NCBI GenBank assembly: GCA_022842995.1
Contig: JALHOM010000007.1
Location: 78 to 64,077 of the forward strand
Origin: Candidatus Saccharimonadota bacterium
GTDB lineage: Bacteria; Patescibacteriota; Saccharimonadia; Saccharimonadales; 2-12-FULL-41-12
Length of the DNA: 64,000 bases
Reading direction: 5' to 3'
The notes under the pieces were generated by a model, which was given only the letters and a program-made list of their open reading frames with translations, ran no database searches and was not told where the DNA came from. The position numbers and the translations under genes are program-made. Below are positions 3,764 to 59,271 of the stretch, one piece after another; the stretch's first letter is position 1, and every line of letters starts with the position of its first letter.

Positions 3764-5320
3764 CTAAAACGGGCTTTCTATCCCCAGTTCATCGGTGTAT
3801 TGTTTGATCTTCTTACTTAGCTCTGCTGATCGTAGGTCAATCTTTTTCATTTCGGCCACGACCTCGTCGAGGTCTATAGGTTCTTCTTCTTCAAAAGTGT
3901 CTACGTAGCGCGGGATATTGAGGTTGTAGTCGTTTTCTTTGACCTCGGCTAGTTTGGCGACGTAGCTGTACTTATCTTCTGCTTTTCGTTGTTCGTAGGT
4001 TTCGATAATTTTGTCTATGTCACTGCTGCGCAGGCGGTTTTGGTTTTTTCCTTTTTCAAAATGTTTTGAGGCGTCGATGAATAAAATATCTTCAGGGTTC
4101 GTGCGACACTTTTTAAATACCAAAATACACGCCGGTATGCTGGTTCCAAAGAACAGATTAGCCGGAAGGCCAATAACTGTGTCGAGATAGTTCTTTTCTC
4201 TGATCAAAAACTCACGAATGTGCCCTTCTGCTGCCCCGCGGAACAAAACGCCGTGCGGCATAACGACAGCCATAGTGCCGTTTTCATCTAGTTGGTAGAT
4301 CATATGTTGGATAAAGGCATAATCTGCTTTGCTGGCCGGAGCAAGTTTGCCGTACTGGCTAAAGCGGTCGTCCTGCAAATGAAGCGGGTTGGCGGACCAT
4401 TGCGCACTAAACGGTGGATTTGCTACCACTGCTTCAAATCTGAATTCGGCGTGTTGCGGGCGTTCTAGGGTATCTTCTTGTTTGATGTTAAATCTGTCAA
4501 AGCGTACATCGTGCAAGATCATGTTCATTCGAGCCAAGTTGTAGGTTGTGTTGTTGAGCTCCTGGCCATAATAATGTCCAACTTCGACGTGACGGCCGAT
4601 TCTGAGCAGTAATGACCCTGAACCACAGGCGGGGTCATAAATGTTTTTGAGCTTCTTTTTGCCCGTAGTCACGATCTTGGCCAGAATTTCTGATATTTCT
4701 TGTGGAGTATAAAATTCACCGGCTTTTTTGCCTGCTCCGGCGGCAAACTGGCTTATGAGGTATTCGTAGGCATCGCCCAAGATGTCGACCTTAGAATCTT
4801 CGAGTCTGAAGTCGATTTTATCAAGATGTATCAAGACCTTGGCAATTAGTTTGCCACGTTCTGCTACCGTGCGGCCAAGCTGGTTTCTGTTGAGGTCAAG
4901 TTCGCTAAAGAGTTTTTCAAAATCTTCTTCGCTATCGGCGCCCATGGTGCTGTGTTCTATGCTGTTCAGAATGCGCTCCAGGATCTCTATCAGGTCATCT
5001 GGGTTGGTGCTGCCTTGCAGGGCAACATGATGAAAAAGCTCATCTGGGCGCAAGAAATAACCAAGGTTGTCCACCGCTTGTTCTTTGATGGCGAGGACGT
5101 ATTCTTCTTGCTTATCATTAGCGTCATTCAGGCTAGAGTAGTCAATATTGTCTGATCTGAGGAGTTTGTTAGCGAACAGCTCCATTTTTTCCGAGAGGTA
5201 TTTGTAGAAAATAAAACCGAGAATATAGTCCCTGAATTCATCGGCATTCATCTTGCCGCGGAGTTCGTTGGCAATATTCCAAAGCTGTCTTTGCAGTTCT
5301 TTCTTTTGGTCCTCGCTCAT
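3764..5320 (-). CDS. hsdM: Type I R-M N6-adenine DNA methyltransferase subunit
   Basis: 518 aa. It has the AdoMet motif IYDPACGSGSLLL, the catalytic motif VVANPPFS, and the typical N-terminal HsdM helical domain (LWNIANELRG). Confidence 0.95.
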   Translation of the reverse strand: MSEDQKKELQRQLWNIANELRGKMNADEFRDYILGFIFYKYLSEKMELFANKLLRSDNIDYSSLNDANDKQEEYVLAIKEQAVDNLGYFLRPDELFHHVALQGSTNPDDLIEILERILNSIEHSTMGADSEEDFEKLFSELDLNRNQLGRTVAERGKLIAKVLIHLDKIDFRLEDSKVDILGDAYEYLISQFAAGAGKKAGEFYTPQEISEILAKIVTTGKKKLKNIYDPACGSGSLLLRIGRHVEVGHYYGQELNNTTYNLARMNMILHDVRFDRFNIKQEDTLERPQHAEFRFEAVVANPPFSAQWSANPLHLQDDRFSQYGKLAPASKADYAFIQHMIYQLDENGTMAVVMPHGVLFRGAAEGHIREFLIREKNYLDTVIGLPANLFFGTSIPACILVFKKCRTNPEDILFIDASKHFEKGKNQNRLRSSDIDKIIETYEQRKAEDKYSYVAKLAEVKENDYNLNIPRYVDTFEEEEPIDLDEVVAEMKKIDLRSAELSKKIKQYTDELGIESPF

Positions 5321-6647: not shown

Positions 6648-6692
6648 CCTCCTTTTGACAAATGCGCTAGTAGTTGCGTATATTTATGATAA

Positions 6693-8780
6693 ATGACAGC
6701 ACACAACCCTCTAGATGATAGGGAGAGCGAAGCTCGGTTTGAGAGCCAACTAGATGCTATTGCCAGCTGTCTAGATGATGAAATCAGAGGTATCGCTTAC
6801 GCATTAGAAATTTGCAAAGCATCTGTTGGCGTGCCGGAGGCTCCTGATTCAGAAAACAAACCTGACCCGATTTACGCGGGAAGGTTCGGTACTTTGATTT
6901 TGGCAGTGGCTCGGGACCCGTCTGCGGTAAAGTTTACTCTACCGCGGCTTGAGGAAGAGCACATCAGCCTCCTTCATCCGGCAGAGGTTTCTCGTCTCGG
7001 GGAGGTTGCCATAGGCCTTATGAACAAGCCGGAGTTGCATGGTGATCCCCAAAAAGGGATTATTTCTTGGCTTGTAAACGCGGTGCTAAATAGTAGCCCT
7101 TCTATTCTAACTATCCAGAGTCTTCATGGCGCAGCAAAGGAAAGCGGATTAACCGAAATAGAGGATTTGTTAGATATTGCCAAGAGAGTGGTTGATGACA
7201 GCGAGTCCTTTATGCAAGCTGTTGAGCTGAAAGGCCCAGGTTATTTCGAAGAAAACCCGGAAGTAAGTACTGCGCCTGAAGTAGCCCCCGAGCGGCCGGC
7301 TTCACTGGACTTGGATAGAACCGAAGAAGCCGAAGCGCACCCTCACATGGAGTTGCTTGAGGAATTCGAAAAACTATATATAGATTACGAAGAGAGCAAG
7401 TCGGTAGAACTGCTCATAGCTGATATAGAGGATAGTGTCGTTATCTTGACCGAAATCATTGACCTATCGTGTTCTCATTTCGACCCGTTACATCCAGAAT
7501 ATATAGACCCCGAAATCGCACGGCTCGCGACAAAAATCGTCGATGAAATTTATCACGAGCTTGCAGCCGTAAGTTCGGTGCCGGATCGCTTTCAACGGCC
7601 GATGGATAGAATAATTCAGGCTAAACTCAGGCAGATAACTTCACTTCAAGATCCAGAGAAATTTTGTAGACAATTATCGGAATTTTTCAAAGATCTACCC
7701 CAGCACTATAACTTACGAGATATTGAGCAGATAGATTGTTATATGTCATTTATGGAAAAACGGTTTGCTGCCTCCGCGGTCGAACATGCTAAGCGCCTGC
7801 TCGTAAAGCATAAAGTGGATACGCCGCGACTACTGAATCGGGTTGAATTTGCTAATTTGGATTTTATTTCTGGTCAAGGATATGTTGAGTTCGATGATTT
7901 TGCTAGTTTTTCTCGGGGCATGAAGTCGGTGTTCGACTTTGAAGTTCCGACTGCAGATAACATTGACTTTGGGTCCGAATACGAAATTATTCAGAAAAAC
8001 GTCGGCGTTCTAATCGAGGACTTGCAAGGCTTGTCTGATGTCGAGGAACCAAGTAGTGACGATAAAACCGTCTACACTGCAGATATTTCAGTGCCGTTTC
8101 CAGATGATCTAGCGGGCGTGCGCGTTGAATTCGTCGGGGGTAAATTCAAAGTTGCAATAACAAACCTTTTTGATTACCGAATATTAGCAGCATTGTCGAA
8201 TAATGGCGGTGGTGAAATCCAGTTTTATGGACCTCCTTCAATTCAGTATTCGGCTGAAATGCCATCTTTTCCTGAAGTTCGTTGGCATATTGGCGAAACT
8301 GATCCCCTTGACGCCCATCTCGAACAGACTGATCGAGGCGTCGATGTGACGGCGGACATTGATGTTGCCCAATTTAATTTGGATAGAATGTTTGAACACT
8401 TCAAGGCAATCGGTTTGACGTGCGAAACAATGAAGGAAGAATTTTTGAATGCATTTCTCGTCGAAGAACCTAAGTTCCGAGCTGGCGACATAGATATTTT
8501 GATCTCAAAAAATAGTTGGCAGAAAGTCGGCGACATTTTACGTACTTCGGCTACTGCAAAATATACACGTGGAGAAAAAGGTATCTTGCATAGGCTTGAA
8601 GTATCGTTACCTCAAATTACCTTATCCTTTGTAAGGCCGTCAGAGCAAAGCGTACAATTAGTGGCCGCTCTGAAAGCTCTTCAAGAGAATTTGGCGATGG
8701 TTGATCACTATCGAGGCGAACTTCGTGTCAGGGGTAATACCGTCGACTATATCTCAGGCCGGTTAGATTACCCTAGGTAG
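6693..8780 (+). CDS. Large acidic hypothetical protein (no recognisable domain)
   Basis: A 695-aa uninterrupted ORF rich in D/E, with no TM segment or signal peptide. I recognise no motif in it. Confidence 0.6.
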   Translation: MTAHNPLDDRESEARFESQLDAIASCLDDEIRGIAYALEICKASVGVPEAPDSENKPDPIYAGRFGTLILAVARDPSAVKFTLPRLEEEHISLLHPAEVSRLGEVAIGLMNKPELHGDPQKGIISWLVNAVLNSSPSILTIQSLHGAAKESGLTEIEDLLDIAKRVVDDSESFMQAVELKGPGYFEENPEVSTAPEVAPERPASLDLDRTEEAEAHPHMELLEEFEKLYIDYEESKSVELLIADIEDSVVILTEIIDLSCSHFDPLHPEYIDPEIARLATKIVDEIYHELAAVSSVPDRFQRPMDRIIQAKLRQITSLQDPEKFCRQLSEFFKDLPQHYNLRDIEQIDCYMSFMEKRFAASAVEHAKRLLVKHKVDTPRLLNRVEFANLDFISGQGYVEFDDFASFSRGMKSVFDFEVPTADNIDFGSEYEIIQKNVGVLIEDLQGLSDVEEPSSDDKTVYTADISVPFPDDLAGVRVEFVGGKFKVAITNLFDYRILAALSNNGGGEIQFYGPPSIQYSAEMPSFPEVRWHIGETDPLDAHLEQTDRGVDVTADIDVAQFNLDRMFEHFKAIGLTCETMKEEFLNAFLVEEPKFRAGDIDILISKNSWQKVGDILRTSATAKYTRGEKGILHRLEVSLPQITLSFVRPSEQSVQLVAALKALQENLAMVDHYRGELRVRGNTVDYISGRLDYPR

Positions 8781-21682: not shown

Positions 21683-23212
21683 ATGAGCGAAATTAATATC
21701 AAAGAACTCTCTGGTGACATCCGACGTGCGATTGCAGAGTTAAAGGCGCAACCCGACATTCAGAATGTTGGCGTTGTTACTCGTGTTGGTGATGGCGTTG
21801 CTTGGATCTATGGCCTACGAGAGGCGGGATTTAACGAAGTTGTCGCTATCGAAAATTCTGACGGCTCTTCAACAAATGCATTTGCTCTTAACCTCGGTGA
21901 AAATGAGATCGGTGCTGTTGTTTTAGGTAGTGACCTTGGTATTAAAGCCGGTGCACGTGTAACATTAACCGGTAAAGCGCTCGAAGTTCCGGTTGGTCCT
22001 GAGCTTCTTGGTCGGGTTATTGACCCTCTCGGCAACCCTTTAGACGGTAAAGGTCCCATCAAGTCCAAGCTAACTGGCCCGATTGAAAACACTGCCCCCG
22101 GTGTACTCGCTCGTAAAAGTGTGCATGAGCCACTTATGACCGGTATTACTGCCATCGACGCTTTGGTGCCTATTGGTCGTGGCCAGCGTGAGTTGATTAT
22201 TGGCGACCGCCAAACCGGAAAGACGGCTGTTGCCCTGGATACAATGATCAACCAGCATCGTCAGAAGACCGGTGTTGTAAATATTTACGTAGCTATTGGT
22301 CAAAAAGCGAGCAAGGTGGCTCGTTTGATCGACCGACTAAAACGAGAAGGCGTTATGGAGCAGACCGTCGTTGTGTCTACCTCTGCTGCTGATGCTGCTT
22401 CTTTGCAGTACCTCGCGCCGTATGCCGGTGCAGCGATCGGCGAATATTTCCGCGACAATAAAGGCCATGCCTTGATTATTTATGACGACCTTTCAAAGCA
22501 CGCTAATTCATATCGTCAGATGAGCTTGTTGCTTCGTCGTCCACCGGGCCGCGAAGCCTATCCTGGTGATGTCTTTTATCTTCATTCACGACTTCTTGAA
22601 CGAGCGGCTAAATTAAGCGACAAGTTGGGTGGCGGTAGCTTAACTGCATTGCCAATCATTGAAACGCAGGCTGGTGATATTTCAGCATATATCCCAACTA
22701 ACGTTATTTCTATCACCGATGGTCAGATCTTCCTTGAAACGAACTTGTTTTACCAGGGTATTCGTCCAGCTATCTCTGTTGGTACTTCGGTATCGCGTGT
22801 TGGTGGTAGTGCCCAGACGAAGGCTGTAAAAGCTGCTTCTGGTGGTTTGAAGCTTAGTCTTGCGCAGTTCCGTGAACTCGCCGCGTTTGCGCAGTTCTCT
22901 ACTGACCTTGATGCCGATACTAAGCAGCGTATTGAACGAGGTCGTCGCTTGACCGAACTTTTGAAGCAACCGCAGTATTCACCGCTATCTGTATGGGAGC
23001 AGACTTCCCTTTTGCTAGCTGCTAACGCCGGAGCATTTGACGAGGTTGAAGTTTCTCAGGTGCAGGCAGCTTCTCGGGCAATGCTGGACGAACTGAAACG
23101 CTCAAGTAAAAAAGAGATGGATAAGCTAAACGAGGGCGATAAGCCAGACGAAAAGACGTCCGAATTGATCATTAAAACAGCCAAAAAAGTCGCCAAGGAC
23201 TTTAAGAAGTAG
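21683..23212 (+). CDS. atpA: F0F1 ATP synthase subunit alpha
   Basis: 509 aa with P-loop GDRQTGKT and [12 protein letters not shown]. Confidence 0.97.
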
Positions 23213-23230
23213 TCGTCGAGAGGATTAATT

Positions 23231-24100
23231 GTGGCAAATACAACCGCGTTAAAGCGCAGAATCGGTTCAGTCAAGAACACTCGCCAGATTACGAAGGCGA
23301 TGGAGCTTGTGGCTGCTTCAAAAATGAAGAAAGCCCAAGACCAGGCTGTTCATGCTCGAGCTTACCGGATGGCTGCACATGAGTTGTTGCGTAAACTCGG
23401 CAGTGTTAGTGATGTCGAGAATCATCCTCTGTTTCTGAATCGAAAAATTAACCAACATTTAATCTTGGTCATAACGAGCGATATCGGTTTGGCAGGAGCT
23501 TATGATGCGAATGCCCTTAAGCAGCTCACCAAGGTCTTGAAGGTCGATGTTGAGAATAAGGTCAAGTCGCAGGTTGTCGGCATCGGTAAAAAAGCTTCGC
23601 AGTTCGTTGGCCGTCTCGAGGGCGTGGACCTGGTTGCGGCCTACCCTATCTTTACTGGACAGCCAAAAGGCGCAGATATCCGGCCAATCGTACGAACCAT
23701 TTTGGAAAAGTATGAAACCGAAGAAGTCGATAAAGTGACCATCATTTATACTGGTTTTGTGTCGAGTATTAAGCAGGACGTCTCGACTTTGGAACTTTTG
23801 CCCGCGGCAATCAAAGAAGATAAAACGCTATCAGAACTAGAAGTGGCCATATTTGAGCCATCAATTAATGAAATTGTAGAGTCGGCAGTGGCTCGGTTGA
23901 TAGAAGTTCAGGTTTGGCAATCGATTTTGGAAAGCCTTGCAAGTGAGCACAGTTCGCGAATGTTGGCGATGAAGAATGCGACCGATAATGCGTCGGATAT
24001 TATTGATGATTTAACATTAGAATTTAACACGGCTCGTCAGGCAGCGATTACGCAAGAAATTGCCGAAATTGTCGGCGGCGCCGAGGCGGTTTCAGCTTAA
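23231..24100 (+). CDS. atpG: F0F1 ATP synthase subunit gamma
   Basis: 289 aa with a GTG start. The N-terminus reads LKRRIGSVKNTRQITKAMELVAASKM and the C-terminus NTARQAAITQEIAEIVGGAEA. Confidence 0.95.
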   Translation: MANTTALKRRIGSVKNTRQITKAMELVAASKMKKAQDQAVHARAYRMAAHELLRKLGSVSDVENHPLFLNRKINQHLILVITSDIGLAGAYDANALKQLTKVLKVDVENKVKSQVVGIGKKASQFVGRLEGVDLVAAYPIFTGQPKGADIRPIVRTILEKYETEEVDKVTIIYTGFVSSIKQDVSTLELLPAAIKEDKTLSELEVAIFEPSINEIVESAVARLIEVQVWQSILESLASEHSSRMLAMKNATDNASDIIDDLTLEFNTARQAAITQEIAEIVGGAEAVSA

Positions 24101-24118
24101 GAAGGAATGGATTTGTAG

Positions 24119-25510
<1,392 letters not shown>

Positions 25511-37601: not shown

Positions 37602-38813
37602 ATGCCTCAAAATTTTAAAAAAACCTATCATGCTCGACCAAAACCGAGTGGTAACTTCCGTTCAAACAGTCGTCGCAAACCAATGCGTCGTAGTAAAGCA
37701 ACTATCGATCCTCGTCGTTACGTTAAAGCCGCGGTTCCGGTAGAAGAAACTACATTTACTCCTCAGCATACGTTTGCCGACTTCCCTATCAGCCAGGTTC
37801 TTATAGATAATATCTCGAACCAAGGATTTATTTCCCCTACTCCCGTTCAAGACGAGGCAATTCCGGTTGCTTTGACCGGAGTTGACGTTCTTGGCCTTGC
37901 CGATACCGGTACTGGTAAGACGGCTGCTTTTGGCATTCCTCTCCTTGATAAGCTGATCAAAGACCGCCAAGCCAGAGCATTGATTTTGGCGCCAACTCGT
38001 GAACTAGCGCAACAGATCGAAACCGAACTTCGTTGGATGGCTAAAGGCAGTGGCCTGCGGACAGTTCTTTTGATCGGTGGCTCTTCAATGGGGCTACAGC
38101 TACGCTACTTGCAGAATAATCCACGGATTATCATCGGAACACCAGGACGAGTAAAAGATCATATCGATCGTAAGACACTCAGAATCGAACAATGTAATGT
38201 TGTCGTACTCGACGAAGTAGACCGTATGCTTGATATGGGCTTTGTGAATGACATCTCTACTATTCTCGGCATGGCTGCAACACCACGCCAGTCACTGTTT
38301 TTCTCGGCAACGATGGACAAACGAGTTCGTGATCTTATAGATGGCTTTACGAAGGATCCGGTTACTGTTTCTGTACGTACTGGAGATACTTCTCAGAACG
38401 TTGAGCAAGACGTCGTTGCGTATCAGACTAATGATGATCGTATGGAACAGCTACATGACCTATTGATCTCGACTCAAGTTGAAAAAGCGCTTGTTTTTGA
38501 TGAAACCCAACGAAGTGTCGAGCGACTGAGTAACGAACTGATCGCTCGTGGCTTCAAAGCAGATGCGATTCACGGCGGGAAAAGCCAAGGTCAGCGAACG
38601 CGTGCTCTTGGTAAGTTTAAAAACAACCAAGTGAACATATTAGTCGCTACCGATGTTGCCGCGAGAGGAATTGATATCAAAGATATTTCTCACGTGATCA
38701 ACTTTTCTGAACCCCAAGTTTACGATGACTACGTACACCGTATTGGTCGCGCCGGTCGTGCGGGACGAAAAGGTTTTGCATATACTTTTGTGAAGCTTCC
38801 GGCTCGAAATTAG
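37602..38813 (+). CDS. DEAD-box ATP-dependent RNA helicase
   Basis: 403 aa with a Q-motif region, motif I ADTGTGKT, motif II VLDEVDRM, motif III SAT, and motif VI HRIGRAGRAG. Confidence 0.93.
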   Translation: MPQNFKKTYHARPKPSGNFRSNSRRKPMRRSKATIDPRRYVKAAVPVEETTFTPQHTFADFPISQVLIDNISNQGFISPTPVQDEAIPVALTGVDVLGLADTGTGKTAAFGIPLLDKLIKDRQARALILAPTRELAQQIETELRWMAKGSGLRTVLLIGGSSMGLQLRYLQNNPRIIIGTPGRVKDHIDRKTLRIEQCNVVVLDEVDRMLDMGFVNDISTILGMAATPRQSLFFSATMDKRVRDLIDGFTKDPVTVSVRTGDTSQNVEQDVVAYQTNDDRMEQLHDLLISTQVEKALVFDETQRSVERLSNELIARGFKADAIHGGKSQGQRTRALGKFKNNQVNILVATDVAARGIDIKDISHVINFSEPQVYDDYVHRIGRAGRAGRKGFAYTFVKLPARN

Positions 38814-38833
38814 AGCCAAGTCTAAAGATAAAA

Positions 38834-39335
38834 GCTTAAAGATAGCTGAGTCAAGAGTCAAGATTCGCCTGCGGCGAGGGGGGGTGGGAGCTCGTAGCTA
38901 GTCGCTTGTACCTAGTAGCTAGGAGCTACTCTTATCTCATGACTCTAGGTCAGAAATTAGAAAATAGAAATTGGTAATCAGAGTAAAGTCTAAAGACTTA
39001 TGAAAGAAGAGTCATGAGTCAAGAGTTTTGAGTTAAGATTCGCCTGCGGCGAGGGGGGTGGGAGCTCGTAGCTAGTCGCTTGTACCTAGTAGCTAGGAGC
39101 TACTCTTGTCTCTTGACTCATACCTCTTAATTCTAATTTAGGAATTAGAAATTCGAAATTTGAAATTGGCATTAACCCAAAAATCGCTATTGCCAACCAC
39201 AACCGAATAAAACATACTCAGCTAGTTTCTAGTTTCTAGTTTCTAGTTTCTAGTTTCTAGTTTCTATTCTAATTCTTGACTCATGACTCATATCTCATAT
39301 CTCATAACTTATATCTCATAACTCATGACTCAAGG
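38834..39335. repeat. Mosaic nested-palindrome intergenic elements, two tandem copies plus trailing word-repeat arm
   Basis: Copy a spans 38834-38950 and copy b 39008-39221. Each contains AAGATTCGCCTGCGGCGA(G)n TGGGAGCTCGTAGCTAGTCGCTTGTACCTAGTAGCTAGGAGCTAC flanked by GAGTCA(A/T)GAGT words and their complements. The poly-G run is G7 in copy a and G6 in copy b. Both copies are homologous to 11319-11500. Confidence 0.85.
39222..39266. repeat. Heptamer tandem array (TAGTTTC) x6
   Basis: Same unit as the 11501-11550 array. It is preceded by the same conserved ~45-nt segment (GAATAAAACATA(A/C)TCAGC). Confidence 0.9.
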
Positions 39336-39347
39336 CTGAAAGCTATT

Positions 39348-40064
39348 CTATATGTGGACGTCGAAGAGTGTGCCGATGCCGTATGTAATGAGCATTGCTA
39401 TGGCTCCTCCGATAACGACTCTCATAGTTGCTTTGCGACGACTGGCTTGGCCGAGTGTAGCGCTGATGTAGCCGGTAAGTATCAAGGCTAGAATCACCGA
39501 AACAAAGGCTACGGGGACGCGTAGGTCTTCTGGTGGAAGTAAGATTGCCGTGAGAGGCAGAACAGCCCCCAGTGTAAACGAAACGCCGGAAGCAATGGCC
39601 GCGTGAGTCGGATTGGTTAGTTCGTCTTGATTAATACCAATCTCGGCGTCTAGGTGGGCTTTGATGGCGTCGTGATCGGTAAGCTCTTGAGCGACTTTTT
39701 TGGCTGTTGGCTTTGAAAGCCCTTTTGATTCATAGATTGCAGCCAATTCTTTGAGCTCTTTGTCGGGGTTTTCTTTGAGCTCGATAATCTCGCGGTTAAT
39801 TAATGATTTTTCGGCATCTTTTTGGCTGCTAACGGATACATATTCCCCGGCAGCCATCGACAACGCTCCAGCTACTAGTCCGGCAATTCCGGCAGTTAAA
39901 ATGGTTGCTTTGTTGGTGGTGGCACCGGCAACCCCTACGACCAATCCAGCTATGGAAACAATACCGTCGTTAGCGCCTAAGACGGCCGCTCGAATCCAGT
40001 TTAATTTGGTGTTTGTGGCAGCCGAATCATGGAATTCATGGTGGTCGTTGTTTGTTTTCGTCAT
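39348..40064 (-). CDS. VIT1/CCC1-family iron/manganese transporter
   Basis: 238 aa with LGANDGIVSIAGLVVG, the central ferritin-like helical segment, and C-terminal TM helices. Confidence 0.85.
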   Translation of the reverse strand: MTKTNNDHHEFHDSAATNTKLNWIRAAVLGANDGIVSIAGLVVGVAGATTNKATILTAGIAGLVAGALSMAAGEYVSVSSQKDAEKSLINREIIELKENPDKELKELAAIYESKGLSKPTAKKVAQELTDHDAIKAHLDAEIGINQDELTNPTHAAIASGVSFTLGAVLPLTAILLPPEDLRVPVAFVSVILALILTGYISATLGQASRRKATMRVVIGGAIAMLITYGIGTLFDVHI

Positions 40065-40072
40065 GCCGGGGA

Positions 40073-40663
40073 TTAGCCTCGTTCTCTTTCTAGGGCGCCA
40101 ATCATCATGAGTAGTAGAACGGTCAAAGATTGCTCTTTTTCGTCCATCTTGTTTAAGGTAATGTTCTCTATGGTGTAGTAGCCTTCAAAAACAGCCGGAC
40201 GCTTGACGAAGTTCGCAATGATAGTGCCATCAGGAGAAAAAATATCATATTTCGGGTTGATAAAGTACCCGAATACTAAACCCAAGATAGGGATTTCGCC
40301 CAGAATTGCATCGAGAAATTTAACCCACGGGTTATGCTCCTTCAGCGTCCCTATAAGTTTGTCGCCGACATTCAACTCGTATGTAGCATTGAAGAGGGAT
40401 TTTGCACCATTTCGCTTGGTGCTGGCGAGAGCATTACCCGATGGATCGTAGATAGTGTAGGTCGGTGACCAGTCGATAATTTTATCAGCTTTAATTTTAT
40501 AAAGCTCGGTTGATTTGCTCCGGTCGCTAAAGACGATGACTTCTTCTTTTAGTTTGAGCAGTTTTTGGCGAACATAAGCAATATCTTGCCCTGCCCCGTC
40601 AATAACCCGCATTTCATTGGTTAAGGTAATCTTTTTGAAACGTAGCTGGATGGGATAATTCAT
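40073..40663 (-). CDS. Hypothetical protein, tentatively LURP-one-related/DUF567-like
   Basis: 196 aa. The pattern ...VIDGAGQDIAYVRQKLLKLKEEVIVFSD...YKIKADKIIDWSPTYTIYDPSGN resembles tubby-C-like LOR family repeats. This assignment is from memory only. Confidence 0.4.
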   Translation of the reverse strand: MNYPIQLRFKKITLTNEMRVIDGAGQDIAYVRQKLLKLKEEVIVFSDRSKSTELYKIKADKIIDWSPTYTIYDPSGNALASTKRNGAKSLFNATYELNVGDKLIGTLKEHNPWVKFLDAILGEIPILGLVFGYFINPKYDIFSPDGTIIANFVKRPAVFEGYYTIENITLNKMDEKEQSLTVLLLMMIGALERERG

Positions 40664-40748
40664 CCTTATATCTTACCTTACTCGGAAGTTTTAGCCGACT
40701 TTTATAAAAGTTCCTTCCCTGTTATAATGTCAAAGTTCTGTAAAATAA

Positions 40749-40822
40749 TGGGAATTGGCCAAGTGGTAAGGCAACGGGTTCTGGTCCCGTGATCGGGGGT
40801 TCGAATCCCTCATTCCCAGCCA
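40749..40822 (+). tRNA. tRNA-Gln (anticodon CTG), CCA encoded
   Basis: TGGGAAT TG GCC AAGTGGTAA GGC A ACGGG TTCTGGT CCCGT GATC GGGGG TTCGAAT CCCTC ATTCCCA G CCA. The acceptor stem TGGGAAT/ATTCCCA pairs fully. The overall sequence is very similar to canonical bacterial tRNA-Gln. Confidence 0.9.
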
Positions 40823-41222
40823 CGAAAATACCGGGCTTCAATGTCCGGTTTTTTCGTGGCTCAGGGTATTCGAACACCCGATCACGATCGGGGTGAAAAC
40901 AGCCTGTGGCTGTTTGCAAGGCAGTCAACTCTTGCGAACTGGTTTCGCAAAGATGTTGCTGCGGGCCGGCGGAACGTCGGTCGAATCCCTCATTCCCAGC
41001 CACGAAAATACCGGGCTTCAATGTCCGGTTTTTTCGTGCCCGAAGGGATCCGAACGCTCGATCACGATCGGGGTGAAAACAGCCTGTGGCTGTTTGCAAG
41101 GCAGTCAACTCTTGCGAACTGGTTTCGCAAAGATGTTGCTGCGGGCCGGCGGAACGTCGGTCGAATCCCTCATCCCTAGCCAGGTTTTGAATTTTAAAGG
41201 GCGAATCCCTCATCCCTAGCCA
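40801..41222 (+). repeat. Tandem array: two exact-period 180-bp units, each starting with the last 22 nt of tRNA-Gln, plus two further variant 3'-end copies
   Basis: TCGAATCCCTCATTCCCAGCCA occurs at 40801 and 40981. The variant TCGAATCCCTCATCCCTAGCCA occurs at 41161 and GAATCCCTCATCCCTAGCCA at 41203. The two 180-bp units are identical except for a patch of clustered mismatches at 40859-40880 versus 41039-41060. Confidence 0.95.
40823..40858 (+). terminator. Rho-independent terminator after tRNA-Gln
   Basis: Stem ACCGGGC/GTCCGGT with loop TTCAAT, followed by T6 (40849-40854). An outer CGAAAA/TTTTCG pairing is also possible. Confidence 0.65.
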
Positions 41223-41318
41223 GGTTTTAAATTTTAAAAAAACTCTTAGTTCGTCGGCAGTTTTGGACTTTTCGCTCTTGTACGAAAAAGGAATCTTATA
41301 TAAATTATTATTAATTCT

Positions 41319-41870
41319 ATGCAAGAAAATCGGCTAAAATTCGAATGCAAAAATAGCTCCAGATCCGAGTTGCATGCTAGAGATAGGATTCAGAATATTT
41401 TAGAACGTTTTGATTTATCGAAGTATACGTTCACCCAGGAAATTATAATTGAAGACAGAGCCATCCCCCATAGTCATCCTGTCTTGACGCTGAACTCATT
41501 CCCTTACAATGATGAAAATATAATTCTAGAAACTTTTATCCATGAGCAACTACATTGGTATCTTGAATCGTTGCCACGAAAATTGGCAGAAGCAGTAACA
41601 GAGCTTAAGAAACAGTATCCAAAAGCCCCTTGGGGTTTTCCGCTTGGCTGTGTTGATCAAAATTCTACTTATGAACACCTTATTCTTTGTCGCCTATCAC
41701 ATAAAATAATGCGGAAGCTCATAGGTAATGACGACGCGTCGAAAGTCTTGTACTACCTCCAGAACCACCATTATCTATGGGTGTATGAAACCATTCAAAA
41801 AGATTCAGAATATTTGGATTCTATTCTCGACAAATACGAGCTGGGTCGTTTATTGGATAAAAATTCTTGA
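41319..41870 (+). CDS. Hypothetical protein with HExxH motif (possible metallopeptidase-like)
   Basis: 183 aa. It contains FIHEQLHWYL (HEQLH). No other motif recognised. Confidence 0.5.
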   Translation: MQENRLKFECKNSSRSELHARDRIQNILERFDLSKYTFTQEIIIEDRAIPHSHPVLTLNSFPYNDENIILETFIHEQLHWYLESLPRKLAEAVTELKKQYPKAPWGFPLGCVDQNSTYEHLILCRLSHKIMRKLIGNDDASKVLYYLQNHHYLWVYETIQKDSEYLDSILDKYELGRLLDKNS

Positions 41871-41924
41871 TTGTTAGAATACATTAATTTTGATTCACGA
41901 ACAAAATGATGTAATATTATTCCA

Positions 41925-42374
41925 ATGTCTAGTAATTCTTGTGAAATGGCGCGACCAGCTCAATTAGGAGCTATTCGATTTGAAGTTGACAGATTACTAT
42001 CGGTTTATGGATTTGAAGTGTGCACTATTGCCCCTAAGGAAAACTCCATGACTACTCAGCTGTATGGAGCATTTGCAATGAAATCAACTAGATTGGTTCA
42101 CCCAACTCCACATACGATAATGCCGACTATTGATTTAGCCGTAAATCTTGCGCCACCCCAAATTATACCCTGGAGAATCTCTATTTTTTACGAGTTGCAA
42201 GATTTCGAGGCTTCCCGTCTAGTCGTTTTATATGGCGATGTAACTGGTACCGGAAATTGCCCAATAAGGGGAACTGTCGAAACGGCAGACGGTTGGCCGA
42301 TTCCAATTTCTTCTAGTCAGGCTAACCTGGTTATTGAAGACCTTGATACCATCCGCTTAGCCTCGGGCTATTGA
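41925..42374 (+). CDS. Hypothetical protein
   Basis: A 149-aa ORF with no recognisable motif. Confidence 0.45.
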   Translation: MSSNSCEMARPAQLGAIRFEVDRLLSVYGFEVCTIAPKENSMTTQLYGAFAMKSTRLVHPTPHTIMPTIDLAVNLAPPQIIPWRISIFYELQDFEASRLVVLYGDVTGTGNCPIRGTVETADGWPIPISSSQANLVIEDLDTIRLASGY

Positions 42375-42545
42375 ATGCTACATCCGGGACAGAATTTAGA
42401 TCCTCGGCAGTATCTATAAAAATTCAATTAACCCAACTAGCGAATAAGGATACTACTACTTGGATACTCTGGATGGCCCGGAGCTCCATACGAGAATTAA
42501 TACGAGAATTAATACGAGGAGCCCTCGTCCGGAATAGCTAAAAAC

Positions 42546-42731
42546 ATGGAACACAAACTTTTTATTGTCTTTGGCGCTTCCCTACTCGACGAATACGAGG
42601 CTGCAAGAAGAATGGGAATAGACGATGAGCGTCTTGCTCAGATAGCACGAAATAGTATTCGGTTCAGTGGCTTGCCAGAAGCGAGCAAACAAAGGCATCT
42701 CGTTAAGATTGACGAGTGGATTGCGGCCTAG
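42546..42731 (+). CDS. Hypothetical small protein
   Basis: A 61-aa ORF with no obvious RBS, so coding status is uncertain. Confidence 0.3.
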   Translation: MEHKLFIVFGASLLDEYEAARRMGIDDERLAQIARNSIRFSGLPEASKQRHLVKIDEWIAA

Positions 42732-42815
42732 ATATCGCAATTAAACGAGTATAGTATCTAGTCCTGCGAGCTCGAGTTTATCGGCTTAAAGACATGATTT
42801 GCTACACTTAAGATT

Positions 42816-43211
42816 ATGAGCATGAAAATTGATCAAGATCTTCAAGATTTCTTAGGTACCGTTGATGCTTCTAAGCTTCAAGACACCAAAGATTTGCTAG
42901 AGATCATACATGCCGAAACTGGTGAGCAGCCTTATTTATCCAGCTCGAGCATTATCGGCTTTGGTTCGTATCATTACGTGTACGAGTCTGGTCGCGAGGG
43001 AGATTCTCCGATCATTGCTTTTTCGCCGCGGAAGGCCGCTCTGGTTATCTATGGATTGGTATTTTATGAAGAACGGCGTGATGGTTTGAGCAAACTTGGC
43101 AAGCACAAGGCCGGCAAAGGCTGTGTGTATATTAATAAATTGGGGGACGTTGATCAGCAAATTTTGAGACAAATGATCCGCGAGGCGTACCAGGATAAAA
43201 AAGGAAAATAG
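42816..43211 (+). CDS. DUF1801 (YdhG-like) domain protein
   Basis: 131 aa with IIGFGSYHYVYESGREGDSPIIAFSPRKAALVIY...GKGCVYINKL, typical of this family. Confidence 0.7.
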   Translation: MSMKIDQDLQDFLGTVDASKLQDTKDLLEIIHAETGEQPYLSSSSIIGFGSYHYVYESGREGDSPIIAFSPRKAALVIYGLVFYEERRDGLSKLGKHKAGKGCVYINKLGDVDQQILRQMIREAYQDKKGK

Positions 43212-43217
43212 CTGCTC

Positions 43218-43523
43218 ATGACGATTTACTACTTAACGTGCAAAGACAAGGCTGAAGCCCGAAAGATTGCCAAGGCGCTACTGAATGATAAGCTGATCGC
43301 CTGTTGTCGTATGACGAACGTGGAGTCAATGTATTGGTGGGATGAAGCTATCAATCAGGATGAAGAAGTTTTGCTGATGATGGAGAGCGTTCCGGGTAAG
43401 TTCGAGGACATCGAAAAAGTGATCGCCGATAACCATAGTTACGAACAGTTTGTCCTGACAGAAGTCAAAGTTAGACGCACGTCAAAGGGTGTGCTTGAGT
43501 GGCTGCATCGCACAATTAGGTAG
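43218..43523 (+). CDS. cutA: Divalent-cation tolerance protein CutA
   Basis: 101 aa with KAEARKIAKALLNDKLIACC...VESMYWWDEAINQDEEVLLMMES. Confidence 0.85.
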   Translation: MTIYYLTCKDKAEARKIAKALLNDKLIACCRMTNVESMYWWDEAINQDEEVLLMMESVPGKFEDIEKVIADNHSYEQFVLTEVKVRRTSKGVLEWLHRTIR

Positions 43524-43531
43524 CCATCCAG

Positions 43532-44359
43532 CTATAGATAAACGAACGGAAGGCTGCCGTCAGTTTTTATGCGGTCTCCCCCGTTGTTGCGGCCGTGATA
43601 GGCGTCGGTAAAGTGTTTGACAATTTCTATGTTTTTGATGTGCCCAGTTTTTTGAAGTCCCTTTACCACGAAGTCACGTTCTTTATCGACGTCTTTATGG
43701 ATCTTGTGATCTATTTGTCCTGTTGCTGCCTTGATGCTGAGGTGCGTATCGTACGTTGCTGCCGCTAGCCAGTCAGCTTTATGTCCACCGGGCAGATACC
43801 AGCCATTCGGTACTTTCCAGAACCGGATATGGTGTCTTTTGCTCGGGTATCCGTTGACTTGGATTTGATACGCGAAGCTATGTCGTTTTTTGAATAGATA
43901 CATGTGCCCTACCGGAGCATTTGGATAGCTTTTGCGAAACAGAATCGAATATATCATTCGAGCAGAAGTTTTGAAGGTTAGTGGGTCGGCAAGTTCCCAT
44001 CCGGCTGCTTGCATAGCGATGTGTATTCGACGGCGCGAGCCAAAAAAGGCTACATTAATCGGATCGCTCAGTAGCCCTGCGGGACTTTTTGCTCTACCTA
44101 CAAAATAATTCGGAGCGTAAAAATACGAGAATGCTCGGTGTACGAGGGGAATGACAAAGTAAGATCCAATAAGCCACAGACCAAAGAGGATCGGCAGTTG
44201 GTTGTCGCCGGTATAGAATCTTGTCAGTATGAACTTATAGAAGATAAAAAATAACACAACAACGGCCACGAACTGCGTAATTCTCCACAGAAATGTAGCC
44301 GTATTTAATGATACTCCCGGAATCTTTTTGAGATGGTGCACTTCTATAAATGGTAGCAT
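43532..44359 (-). CDS. LssY C-terminal domain-like membrane protein
   Basis: 275 aa with N-terminal TM helices, then DPINVAFFGS...AAGWELADP...MYLFKKRHSFAYQ...KRHHIRFWKV. Confidence 0.6.
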   Translation of the reverse strand: MLPFIEVHHLKKIPGVSLNTATFLWRITQFVAVVVLFFIFYKFILTRFYTGDNQLPILFGLWLIGSYFVIPLVHRAFSYFYAPNYFVGRAKSPAGLLSDPINVAFFGSRRRIHIAMQAAGWELADPLTFKTSARMIYSILFRKSYPNAPVGHMYLFKKRHSFAYQIQVNGYPSKRHHIRFWKVPNGWYLPGGHKADWLAAATYDTHLSIKAATGQIDHKIHKDVDKERDFVVKGLQKTGHIKNIEIVKHFTDAYHGRNNGGDRIKTDGSLPFVYL

Positions 44360-56723: not shown

Positions 56724-57307
56724 AGTGTCTTGTCTCCTATTAGGTATACAACCGTGAATATAAATATCCACACCACATCAAGAAAATGCCAGAACATGCT
56801 GAAGAGAGTGAGGCGTGAGATGGTGAGAGAGTCGATTTTTGAACGGAAAAACTTTGGCAGCAATACCAGCAGCCATATGATACCAGCGGTAATATGAAGC
56901 CCGTGAGTAGCTACCAAAGTAAAGTAGGCCGAGAGGAAGGCACTTTCGCGCCAGGAATGTCCTTCGTTGTACATTTTTATGAACTCGTACAGCTCCATGG
57001 CAAGGAATGACACTCCTAGAACAAGTGTAGCGATCAATAGTTTGCGTGCCAGCGAGATCATTGATTTTTTGGCCGCCAGAAGCGCGATCCCAGCGGTGAA
57101 GCTACTTGCAAGTAGCAGGAGTGTCTCCACGAGTATAAACGGCATATCAAATATATCGCTGGCCGATGGACCCCCGGCTGTGTTGTTTCGTAAAACGGCG
57201 TAAACCGCAAATAAGGTGGCGAATAAGATACAATCAGTCATCAGGTAGATCCAAAAACCGAGTTGTACTTTAGAGCTGTTTTGAGTGGACGCGAGAGTAT
57301 GGCTCAT
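56720..57307 (-). CDS. cyoC: Cytochrome o ubiquinol oxidase subunit III
   Basis: 195 aa counted from the ATG at 57307, which overlaps the cyoB stop as ATGA. Contains LGFWIYLMTDCILFATLFAVY...FWHFLDVVWIFIF. Confidence 0.9.
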   Translation of the reverse strand: MSHTLASTQNSSKVQLGFWIYLMTDCILFATLFAVYAVLRNNTAGGPSASDIFDMPFILVETLLLLASSFTAGIALLAAKKSMISLARKLLIATLVLGVSFLAMELYEFIKMYNEGHSWRESAFLSAYFTLVATHGLHITAGIIWLLVLLPKFFRSKIDSLTISRLTLFSMFWHFLDVVWIFIFTVVYLIGDKTL

Positions 57308-59271
57308 GATCTTGTCCTTTTGAGTAGTTGGTTCTCGTAGGCTTTTATAGCGGCTGCAGGGATTATGATTTCGCCTGGGTTTATGATGGAACGACGGATA
57401 AGAATTACTATGCAGCCAATAAGTCCAAGTGCCGCTAACCACCAGATATGCCATATCAGAGCAAAACCAACCGCACCTGCCATCCCGGCGATTATAATCC
57501 CATCTGGCGTGTTTCTAGGAAGCTCGATGTCTTCGTATGGGGAAGCATCTGGTTTGCTTTTTGATCGTTTTCTTTCCCAGAATTCGTCTCTATGCGTCAC
57601 TGATGGTAATTTAGCAAAGTTATAAAATGGTGCTGGCGATGGAGTTGACCATTCTAGAGTACGGCCGTTCCAAGGATCTCCATTTGTGTCACGGAGCTTG
57701 TGGCGCTGCTTAATACTAACGTAGAGCTGGAGAAGCTGTAACCCGACACCTAGCAATATGACACCCACACCGATAGCAGAAATAATAAACAGCCATTGCC
57801 AGCCAAGCGACGAGTCGTAGTGGTCTAGCCTCCTTGTGGCGCCCTTTAATCCTAAGATGTAGAGTGGCAAAAATGCCAGTAAAAAGCCGATTAGCCAGGC
57901 GCCAACTACATACGTTCCTAGTTTTTCGTGAAGCCTAAAGCCAAAAATTTTTGGAAACCAATAGATAAAGCCGGCGATATAGCCAAAGACCACTCCACCG
58001 ATAATCATGTTATGAAAGTGAGCTACAAGGAACATTGAATTGTGCATTTGGAAGTCGATTGCTGGAACGGACATCATAACGCCGGTCATCCCTCCAATCG
58101 TGAAGGTCATTACAAATCCTAAGAACCAGATCATCGGATTTTTAAAGTCAATCGAGCCTCTGTACATCGTGAATAACCAGTTGAAGACTTTAACGCCAGT
58201 TGGAATTGCGATAATCATTGTCATTATGCCGAAGAAGGCGTTCACATTTGGCCCAGCACCCATGGTGAAGAAGTGGTGTAGCCACACAATGTAAGACAGG
58301 ACGGCAATTGCCAACAATGCAATAACCATCGATTTATAGCCAAACAAGCGTTTTCGTGAAAAAGTAGCTACAATTTCAGAAAAAATACCGAAAGCAGGCA
58401 AAATCAGGATATAGACCTCCGGGTGTCCCCAGGCCCAAATGAGATTTACATACATCATTGGATCGCCACCGAGGGTGGTCGTAAAGAAATTCGTGCCTAG
58501 CAGGCGATCCAGGGAAAGCAGGCCTAAGGTAACGGTCAGCACAGGGAAGGCTGTTACGACGAGCATCATACTGGTTAAGACACTCCATGCAAAGATAGGC
58601 ATTTTCATGAGGGTCATTCCTGGTGCGCGCATTTTTAGAATTGTTGTAATGAAGTTTATTCCTGACAAAAGACTTCCAATTCCGGCAATTTGCAGACTCC
58701 AGATCCAGTAGTCAACGCCCACCCCAGGACTATATTCGAGGCCTGATAACGGTGGATAGGCCAACCACCCTGCTGCCGAGAATTCACCGATAATCAGGGA
58801 GGTGTTGACGAGTGCCATGCCGGCAAAAAACAACCAGAAACTGACAGAGTTCAGAAAAGGAAAAGCGACATCTCGTGCACCAAGCATCAGCGGTAGGACC
58901 AAATTTATAAGACCGAACATGAGGCCCATCGCTACGAAAAATATCATTATTGTTCCATGGGCAGAAAACATCTGTTGAAAATGATCGGAAGTGAGGTAGC
59001 CGCTGTTTTCTCCGCTCGCGATGGCAGTTTGTCCGCGCAACATGGCGGCATCCATGAGACCTCTGAGCAGCATCAGTGTGGCCACAACAATATACATGAT
59101 GCCTATTTTTTTCGCATCAAGGGAGGTCAGCCACTCTTTGTAAAGCCATCCCCAACGTTTTTTATAAGTCAGAAGTGCAGCGATGCCAATAGTGCCTCCG
59201 ATTAATGAAATTGCACCACCGATTGCTATTGGGTCGTATGGTAGAGCGTCAAGGTTTAGTTTACCGAGCAT
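57304..59271 (-). CDS. cyoB: Cytochrome o ubiquinol oxidase subunit I (heme-copper oxidase)
   Basis: 655 aa with WAWGHPEVYILILPAFG and HFHNMIIGG. Confidence 0.97.
   Translation of the reverse strand: MLGKLNLDALPYDPIAIGGAISLIGGTIGIAALLTYKKRWGWLYKEWLTSLDAKKIGIMYIVVATLMLLRGLMDAAMLRGQTAIASGENSGYLTSDHFQQMFSAHGTIMIFFVAMGLMFGLINLVLPLMLGARDVAFPFLNSVSFWLFFAGMALVNTSLIIGEFSAAGWLAYPPLSGLEYSPGVGVDYWIWSLQIAGIGSLLSGINFITTILKMRAPGMTLMKMPIFAWSVLTSMMLVVTAFPVLTVTLGLLSLDRLLGTNFFTTTLGGDPMMYVNLIWAWGHPEVYILILPAFGIFSEIVATFSRKRLFGYKSMVIALLAIAVLSYIVWLHHFFTMGAGPNVNAFFGIMTMIIAIPTGVKVFNWLFTMYRGSIDFKNPMIWFLGFVMTFTIGGMTGVMMSVPAIDFQMHNSMFLVAHFHNMIIGGVVFGYIAGFIYWFPKIFGFRLHEKLGTYVVGAWLIGFLLAFLPLYILGLKGATRRLDHYDSSLGWQWLFIISAIGVGVILLGVGLQLLQLYVSIKQRHKLRDTNGDPWNGRTLEWSTPSPAPFYNFAKLPSVTHRDEFWERKRSKSKPDASPYEDIELPRNTPDGIIIAGMAGAVGFALIWHIWWLAALGLIGCIVILIRRSIINPGEIIIPAAAIKAYENQLLKRTRS

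Follow-up and report, generated by a model that had tools for sequence, protein, structure and literature searches.

Tandem protein-less units that probably insert into the T-loop of a Saccharibacteria tRNA-Gln gene while restoring it

Integrative elements that target tRNA genes insert into a tRNA loop, carry a copy of the end that they displace, leave direct repeats of the tRNA 3' end, and can be stacked one behind another. The tRNAs of Patescibacteria also carry group I introns, structured RNAs that lie within the tRNA genes on the tRNA strand (PMC13011429). Retrozymes form tandem arrays of unit length around a conserved structured RNA core and encode no protein. We describe here a locus in a 64,000-nucleotide stretch of a Candidatus Saccharimonadota genome (contig JALHOM010000007.1; the whole stretch is hereafter called the window), in which a tRNA-Gln gene is followed by two tandem units of ~180 bp, each composed, in order, of a replacement tRNA 3' end, a terminator hairpin, an arm antisense to the tRNA, seven sense bases, and an 88-nt structured module that we call M. 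On balance, we favor the reading that the region holds two tandem, protein-less insertion elements of ~180 bp in the T-loop of tRNA-Gln, between positions 53 and 55, which restore the gene that they enter and belong to a large undescribed family of Saccharibacteria and other Patescibacteria.

M units share with the tRNA-targeting integrative elements each of the traits listed above, but differ from them in their size of ~180 bp, in their covarying 88-nt core and antisense arm, in the absence of cargo and of an integrase from the sequences examined, in the existence of a mirror form that restores the 5' part of the tRNA together with a promoter, and in the use of D-loop sites. Like the group I introns, M is found in the same phylum, within tRNA genes, as a structured RNA on the tRNA strand; unlike them, it is 88-120 nt long, has no match to RF00028, has most of its sites in the T-loop or D-loop and few in the anticodon loop, and lies, wherever a check was possible, in a dead fragment next to an intact gene, where its excision does not restore the tRNA exactly. 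The resemblance to retrozymes lies in tandem unit-length arrays (~180 nt here), a conserved structured RNA core and the lack of a protein, whereas M units hold no known ribozyme motif, are bacterial, and are tied to tRNAs and to gene-restoring duplications. Integron attC sites and the CTX-phi attP(+) site (XerCD) are strand-specific imperfect hairpins or rods in which an antisense segment pairs with a sense copy of the target and mismatches lie beside the crossover, and M units may fold in a similar way; M units differ in having three extra hairpins (M) at the junction and a tRNA loop as target, and no recombinase was found among the reading frames examined. Free-standing homing-endonuclease insertions in organelle genes also bring a replacement gene terminus and co-convert the flank to the donor allele, but M units have no endonuclease gene and enter a tRNA rather than a protein gene. 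Finally, repetitive extragenic palindromes, bacterial interspersed mosaic elements (REP/BIME) and miniature inverted-repeat transposable elements (MITEs) are, like M, short, structured, multi-copy, protein-less and situated near gene ends and terminators. M differs from these repeats in keeping its structure at ~67-73% identity, in lacking terminal inverted repeats or a fixed target-site duplication, and in its linkage to tRNA genes and to the tRNA strand.

The tRNA-Gln(CUG) gene was called by ARAGORN and Rfam alike (coordinates of the features of the locus are collected in Table 1). Its 3' end is the 22-mer TCGAATCCCTCATTCCCAGCCA, exact copies of which start at 40801 and 40981, followed by a match with two mismatches at 41161 and one with three mismatches at 41201, where the true copy starts at 41202; the chance expectation for such matches was 0 in 100 shuffles. 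TRF (Tandem Repeats Finder) reported a period of 180 bp (2.1 copies, 40801-41182) and a second period of 40 bp (41162-41238). The 180-bp unit folds at -82 kcal/mol (z = -6.1 relative to shuffles), and terminator-like hairpins lie at 40830-40849 and 41010-41029. A preliminary description, made from the letters of the window alone, had pointed out the recurring 22-mer with its downstream variants, two nearly identical 180-bp units with clustered mismatches, a terminator, and three hairpins; all of these were recovered, the three hairpins within the predicted fold of the unit.

The arm was absent from that description. Positions 40857-40885 form an inverted, degenerate copy of the 3' half of tRNA-Gln itself, and over 40868-40886, for example, 18 of 19 bases agree with the reverse complement of 40788-40806. 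The next copy of TCGAAT...CCA comes after M, which thus occupies the T-loop position of a tRNA 3' fragment, and the antisense arm is able to pair with the exon pieces flanking M on both sides. Units 1 and 2 differ at eight positions, all inside 40859-40878 and all inside the arm, an arrangement with a chance probability of ~5e-8. The clustering of mismatches noted earlier stands, while a reading as random divergence does not, the patch being the antisense arm. Tandem pairs at two other loci (L082, L139) show no such clustering of differences in the arm.

The consensus structure of M was derived from an alignment (A1) of 94 short-form copies and consists of three consecutive hairpins: P1, with an internal A.G mismatch and an invariant CCWGYGG tip; P2, a long hairpin; and P3, a 7-bp stem with a GAA-type loop. 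Compensatory changes were found in 25 of the 32 pairs, paired cells amount to 94.5% in M as against 71.5% in column shuffles and 30-45% in slid-partner controls, and the covariation score is 0.584, set against 0.176. The preliminary suggestion of a functional structured RNA of ~120 nt holds, on this covariation evidence, for the 88-nt core of the unit as a conserved RNA-like element. In P3, 78 of the 94 copies retain a G.U pair, and two further pairs alternate between G.U and G-C, conservation which indicates that the structured strand of M is the tRNA strand. The ends of M, GU...YC, resemble the target G53 U54/U55 C56. No covariation was seen that would indicate a kissing interaction of the conserved P1 and P2 loops, and M, with its three consecutive hairpins, has no terminal inverted repeats; the repeat that flanks it is a tRNA segment of variable length.

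Rfam 15 was scanned over window positions 38000-44000 at E <= 10, over 16 loci at the gathering score and over 9 loci at E <= 0.5. In these scans of the window and 25 loci, M belonged to no Rfam family even at permissive thresholds, only tRNA, RNase P and SAM being matched; in particular, neither the group I intron family RF00028 nor the hammerhead, twister, twister-sister, pistol, hatchet, HDV-like or hairpin ribozymes matched. M is likewise not described in the literature searched, in which only the group I introns of Patescibacteria tRNAs turned up (PMC13011429). Identity among M copies is 73% within genomes and 67% between genomes, with no sign of recent intragenomic bursts. Diverged copies that nevertheless keep their structure speak for selection acting on each of them over a long time, and not for a recent burst.

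An exact 27-nt piece of the module gave no matches in genome contigs, an exact 24-nt piece gave none in viral contigs, and blastn of the unit against plasmids and phages returned nothing meaningful. Because the species is missing from those collections, a degenerate structural pattern was needed. The 29-nt pattern GTGARANNNNCCWGYGGNNNNTYGCAAGR, built from the M copies of three metagenomic contigs described below (L006, L005 and L008), was run on a species-representative genome collection and matched at least 120 genome stretches; nearly all of the matches listed are from Candidatus Saccharibacteria/Saccharimonadales or other Patescibacteria metagenome-assembled genomes (MAGs). The same pattern had no matches in the viral collection. 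Several MAGs contain 2-4 M loci, and some loci up to four M copies; in the window, the covariance model R1 found two copies only, at 92.9 bits each. Matches assigned to other lineages include a typical M unit beside tRNA-Leu on a 2.4-kb contig of a Calothrix MAG (L022), which is probably a misbinned Saccharibacteria contig, and a chance pattern match within non-tRNA DNA of an Anaerolineae genome (L042).

M copies nearly always lie inside a non-functional tRNA fragment that adjoins an intact tRNA gene on the same strand, and the intact gene was found wherever the flank sufficed to check. Relative to the nearby tRNA called by ARAGORN, 101 copies are on the same strand and 2 on the opposite one; for 44 more, many of which lie close to the end of their locus, no tRNA was called within range. 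The left exon was assigned to the T-loop for 59 copies, in the D-loop or D-stem for 22, and in the anticodon loop for 4, and tRNAs of 16 amino-acid types are involved. Two arrangements were distinguished, with 42 copies of a downstream type and 48 of an upstream type. In the downstream type, as in the window, the order is intact tRNA, terminator, arm, short exon, M and full 3' exon (~40 loci), with a spacer of 57-88 nt (~70) in ~40 loci and a unit of ~180 nt in 29 loci. The upstream type is its mirror image: promoter, 5' exon, M, short 3' exon, short arm, a new -10 box, and the intact tRNA. In both, the arm is antisense to the uninterrupted tRNA junction. Compared with a shuffled arm, the arm lowers the fold energy by ~10 kcal/mol, and it is paired to the 3' exon in 14 of the 29 minimum-free-energy folds of units. 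Unit-length head-to-tail repeats occur in the window (2 units) and in L082, L139 and L138. Since excision of M restores the tRNA inexactly, with one G of the T-stem run missing, and an intact copy adjoins, M does not act like a working intron. At one locus (L046, minus strand, ~2331), the 5' part of tRNA-Leu(UAG) runs into a truncated M without any intact tRNA-Leu within 1.2 kb, the only fragment seen with no intact gene close by.

The fetched loci were selected for containing M, and it is to loci so chosen that the following counts apply: 49 of 139 tRNAs are followed downstream by a second copy of their 3' end, and 30 are preceded by a second copy of their 5' end. Where such end copies lack M, a different structured insert takes its place in an architecture of arm, insert and tRNA 3' copy; these inserts are unrelated to M, ~40-130 nt long and not in Rfam 15, and examples are found in L028 (downstream of tRNA-Leu 643-729), L129 (tRNA-Ser 2882-2971, tRNA-Arg 1345-1421), L122 (tRNA-Pro 6690-6766), L069, L055, L133 and L143. 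One type (B) contains CCCCGGCACCCUUGCC, another (C) contains UUCCUUGCUUGGCC...GAGCGA, and very short inserts occur too. In a variant termed beta (L011, L031, L077), the 5' GUGAGA-P1-GCAAG domain of M has a different continuation and the end GGACAGUUCCUGUAAGGAA, which suggests that the RNA family may be modular. M copies nested in M, inserted at CGG/G just before P3, were seen in L005, L024, L040, L076, L091, L102 and L107; because of these nested copies, M would appear to target its own hairpin as well. In L115 (3372-3625), a tRNA-Ile is split in its anticodon loop by a 172-bp segment that holds a complete tRNA-Ile and no M.

The polarity of the insertion at tRNA-Gln can be read from related contigs. 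L131, a conspecific contig, reads ...GTCCCGTGATCGGGGGTTCGAATCCCTCATCCCTAGCCA/GGTTTTAAATTTTAAAAAAACTCTTAG..., which corresponds to window positions 40786-40813 joined to 41214 onward, and compared with this empty site the window is 400 bp longer (180 + 180 + 40), the additional sequence being flanked by direct repeats of TCGAATCCCTCAT. The tRNA-Gln of L131 ends in the allele ATCCCTAG, the variant of the window's downstream copies, with native downstream DNA directly after it. In a related species (L137), the intact tRNA-Gln reads TAGGGAT...ATCCCTAGCCA and is followed by the homologous native DNA GGTTTTAAATT, while a TGGGAAT-type copy lies upstream of it as an M-interrupted fragment. The variant copies had been presumed to derive from a foreign tRNA allele; on comparison with L131 and L137 the direction is reversed, the ATCCCTAG copies being the ancestral resident 3' end of the locus, and the ATTCCCAG end and terminator having been imported with the element. 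A displaced copy whose allele is unlike that of the functional end was also found in L133 and L143. Judged by these alignments, the elements can stack and can overwrite resident tRNA halves with donor alleles. The crossover would lie within the 13 shared bases TCGAATCCCTCAT. The segment 41183-41222 is a duplicated resident end with neither arm nor M, and 41183-41201 might be what remains of an older unit, or else a precursor duplication.

Contigs from other samples bear on both sides of the locus. L130, from an independent sample, is identical to the window from 41133 onward, so the arrangement from that point is not an artifact of a single assembly, and the downstream 183-aa protein is 100% identical on L131, itself from another sample. 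Homologues of the upstream LOR-like protein led to the short metagenomic contigs L006, L005 and L008. In L006, the LOR-like protein is 99% identical and the promoter is the same, and the tRNA-Gln sequence is interrupted by three M copies, in the D-loop, the anticodon loop and the T-arm; GTTC is also the insertion site in this anticodon loop. In L005 and L008 (78-81% identity), further M-bearing fragments precede a new -10 box and an intact tRNA-Gln. From the window, L131 and L006, presence or absence of the element and its copy number are seen to vary within one species. The window type (L130), the empty type (L131) and the type with three M copies (L006) are found among samples SRR28154521, SRR28154523 and SRR28154525.

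Table 1. Features of the tRNA-Gln locus and its two tandem units (window coordinates)
Feature	Positions	Strand	Evidence or remark
Promoter-like site of tRNA-Gln, TTTATA-16-TATAAT	40701-40728	+	Same promoter before the M-interrupted copy in L006
Intact tRNA-Gln(CUG), CCA encoded, acceptor stem TGGGAAT/ATTCCCA	40749-40822	+	ARAGORN; Rfam tRNA 62.3 bits
Replacement 3' end brought by the element (T-loop to CCA; allele ATTCCCAG), part of the functional tRNA and left end of unit 1	40801-40822	+	
Unit 1 terminator hairpin CGAAAATACCGGGC-TTCAAT-GTCCGGTTTTTTCG, with T-run; not native downstream DNA	40823-40856	+	Comparison with L131
Unit 1 antisense arm, degenerate reverse complement of tRNA ~76 to 44, starts TGG	40857-40885	+	Holds all 8 inter-unit differences
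Unit 1 sense exon fragment GATCGGG (variable loop and T-stem 5' strand)	40886-40892	+	
Unit 1 module M, 88 nt; P1 40894-40918, P2 40921-40962, P3 40965-40981	40893-40980	+	R1, 92.9 bits, E = 7e-22
Second copy of imported 3' end, allele ATTCCCAG; left end of unit 2	40981-41002	+	
Unit 2 terminator hairpin, same as that of unit 1	41003-41036	+	
Unit 2 antisense arm, 8 positions unlike the unit 1 arm	41037-41065	+	
Unit 2 sense exon fragment GATCGGG	41066-41072	+	
Unit 2 module M, identical to unit 1 M	41073-41160	+	R1 covariance model
Displaced resident-type 3' end, allele ATCCCTAG, joined to M	41161-41182	+	
GGTTTTGAATTTTAAA, copy of native downstream DNA, then GGG; without arm or M	41183-41201	+	
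Last resident 3' end copy CGAATCCCTCATCCCTAGCCA, continuous with native downstream DNA as in L131	41202-41222	+	

The surroundings of the locus were examined for genes that could mobilize such a unit. None of the 20 largest open reading frames (ORFs) between 31.2 and 53.4 kb, six of which have no Pfam match, shows a recombinase, transposase or reverse transcriptase domain. The idea that the module might stand beside an integrase, TnpB or IscB gene, raised in the preliminary description, found no support: such domains are absent from the neighboring ORFs examined, and no HEARO or other omega-RNA family matched in the Rfam scans. Cargo was not found either, the whole element measuring ~180 bp in 29 loci with no real ORF in the insert. 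ORFs of 108-200 aa do cross the tRNA and the repeat units, at 40722-41324 (-), 40841-41179 (+) and 40893-41219 (+); they are repeat artifacts and could be mis-annotated as genes. Units of this kind thus yield long spurious ORFs, such as the 200-aa ORF at 40722-41324, and they also break assemblies at tRNA loci.

An exact look-up of the upstream LOR-like protein returned nothing on record, and that of VIT1 returned a short contig only. The window's AtpD has named close homologues (83-86% identity) only from Candidatus Saccharimonadales, and tblastn matched several proteins of the window to the fetched Saccharibacteria loci, at 35-62%. Elsewhere in the window, 7-nt tandem arrays lie between the DEAD-box helicase and VIT1 genes (CTAGTTT x6.4 at 39222-39266; ACTCATA x7.7 at 39279-39332), and the window also holds genes for cytochrome o ubiquinol oxidase subunit I (57304-59271), the F1 ATPase alpha and beta subunits (21683-25510), and the type I restriction-modification protein HsdM (3764-5320).

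On the favored reading, the element keeps tRNA-Gln alive by supplying its own T-loop-to-CCA segment and terminator, and the old 3' end is pushed downstream. As for how the units arose, we propose a mechanism of Campbell-style recombination together with selection on a folded single strand, which we regard as plausible rather than probable. A unit-length copy, either a circle or a tandem repeat, would be looped out between direct repeats, passed between strains as DNA, and recombined with the chromosomal tRNA in the 13-23 nt of 3' segment that the two share, here within TCGAATCCCTCAT. Arm, exon fragments, terminator and M could fold a single strand into a closed rod with a four-way junction; drawn as a circle, the arm would pair with both exon pieces, the terminator would cap one end and a small loop the other, and M would form three branching hairpins. 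This folded single-stranded form, whether RNA or single-stranded DNA (ssDNA), would be what selection maintains. The second unit may have come from a second integration or from unequal crossing-over between the 56-bp direct repeats. The constant size of ~180 nt and the tandem arrays fit a unit-length intermediate.

Several points weigh against insertion elements of this kind and against the mechanism just outlined. No mobility step has been observed, copies within a genome are hardly more alike (73%) than copies from different genomes (67%), with no sign of recent bursts, and a host function would likewise be compatible with the strong purifying selection seen on every copy. The 13-23 nt of shared sequence are short for RecA-type recombination, and downstream-type units sit behind a terminator, arguing against abundant RNA. 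Simple recombination does not account for the arm, and the eight clustered differences between the two arms are not accounted for. Lastly, L131, whose contig is without the 5' acceptor strand of tRNA-Gln, could be, instead of the ancestral empty site, a deletion derivative that arose when the 13-nt repeats recombined; L137 speaks against this, yet it belongs to a different species.

M might instead be a small intron-like or ribozyme element that enters exposed tRNA loops as RNA and is fixed by reverse transcription, in which case the units would be retrozyme-like retro-copies and the arm a cDNA or template-switch product from the CCA end. The insertion sites, namely the three exposed tRNA loops and the P3 loop of other M copies, agree with such a route, as do the strand bias (101 of 103), the conserved G.U pairs, the mimicry of G53 U54/U55 C56 by the M ends, an arm that begins with TGG, the complement of CCA, a duplicated segment that extends to the terminator T-run and hence to the transcript end, and the retrozyme-like tandem units of unit length. 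We nonetheless hold it to be unlikely. An M-interrupted tRNA is always accompanied by an intact copy where this could be checked, with no example of a sole copy; excision leaves the tRNA one G short; no ribozyme or intron family of Rfam matched, nor was a reverse transcriptase domain present in the 20 ORFs; and, CCA being genome-encoded here, the TGG start of the arm is not diagnostic. Moreover, group II introns were not detected in Patescibacteria (PMC13011429). Distinctly unlikely, in our view, is that M units are host-beneficial tRNA-linked noncoding RNAs or cis-elements, serving processing or termination, antisense control of tRNA 3' halves, or as decoys, and duplicated along with neighboring tRNA pieces. 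Structure kept in every copy despite age and divergence would be expected of them, as would the frequent end copies at the M loci (49 and 30 of 139 tRNAs) and an arm antisense to the tRNA 3' half. Against this stand the variable presence and copy number within a species (window, L131, L006), the occupation of the same niche by several unrelated insert families, the several M copies in one dead fragment of L006, the nesting of M in M at several loci, and an allele replacement that shows import from other lineages.

The preliminary description had favored stacked att-type scars, here taken as attL/attR-type remnants of tyrosine-integrase islands or prophages at tRNA-Gln that were later deleted. 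The T-loop and anticodon loop are classical integrase crossover sites, the direct repeats span the T-loop to the 3' end (40801, 40981, 41161, 41202), and the insert supplies a replacement 3' end; indeed, the part of the claim that survives is that the T-loop boundary marks gene-restoring insertions, as L131 and dozens of loci attest. What fails is the integrase, no domain of which was detected in the 20 ORFs, and the cargo, found nowhere although a constant spacer of ~70 nt and a unit of ~180 bp recur in dozens of loci. The mirror-image upstream type, with its promoter and 5' part, is not an integrase product, D-loop sites exist, and phage, plasmid and viral collections gave no matches, all of which makes this origin highly improbable. 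The fallback considered there, a lineage-specific slippage duplication without wider meaning, had the tandem periods of 180 and 40 bp to recommend it, and would have left the module without relatives elsewhere. It was refuted by the M family in at least 120 other genome stretches, by the conserved structure of M, and by the comparison with L131, from which terminator and allele appear imported, and we allow it next to no chance.

The reading of protein-less insertion could be extended further. M units may be homing elements of a new, protein-less class, in which a single strand of ~180 nt (RNA or ssDNA), circular or rod-shaped, has a conserved and possibly catalytic core of three hairpins, and arm and core together mimic a tRNA loop. 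Such an element would rebuild the gene as it inserts, replace resident tRNA halves by alleles of the donor, and spread among Saccharibacteria. This extension we consider rather unlikely as a whole.

Saccharibacteria have genomes of ~1 Mb in which tRNA genes are mostly single-copy. In the loci chosen for M, many of these genes are flanked by their own dead fragments with a conserved structured insert, and M itself, with its 25 covarying pairs, makes up a new family of RNA or ssDNA structures outside Rfam. The arrangement represents a new way of colonizing essential genes without killing them, in which imported alleles can take the place of either tRNA half. Should the core turn out to be catalytic or to direct recombination, M units would be a minimal mobile element without a protein of its own.

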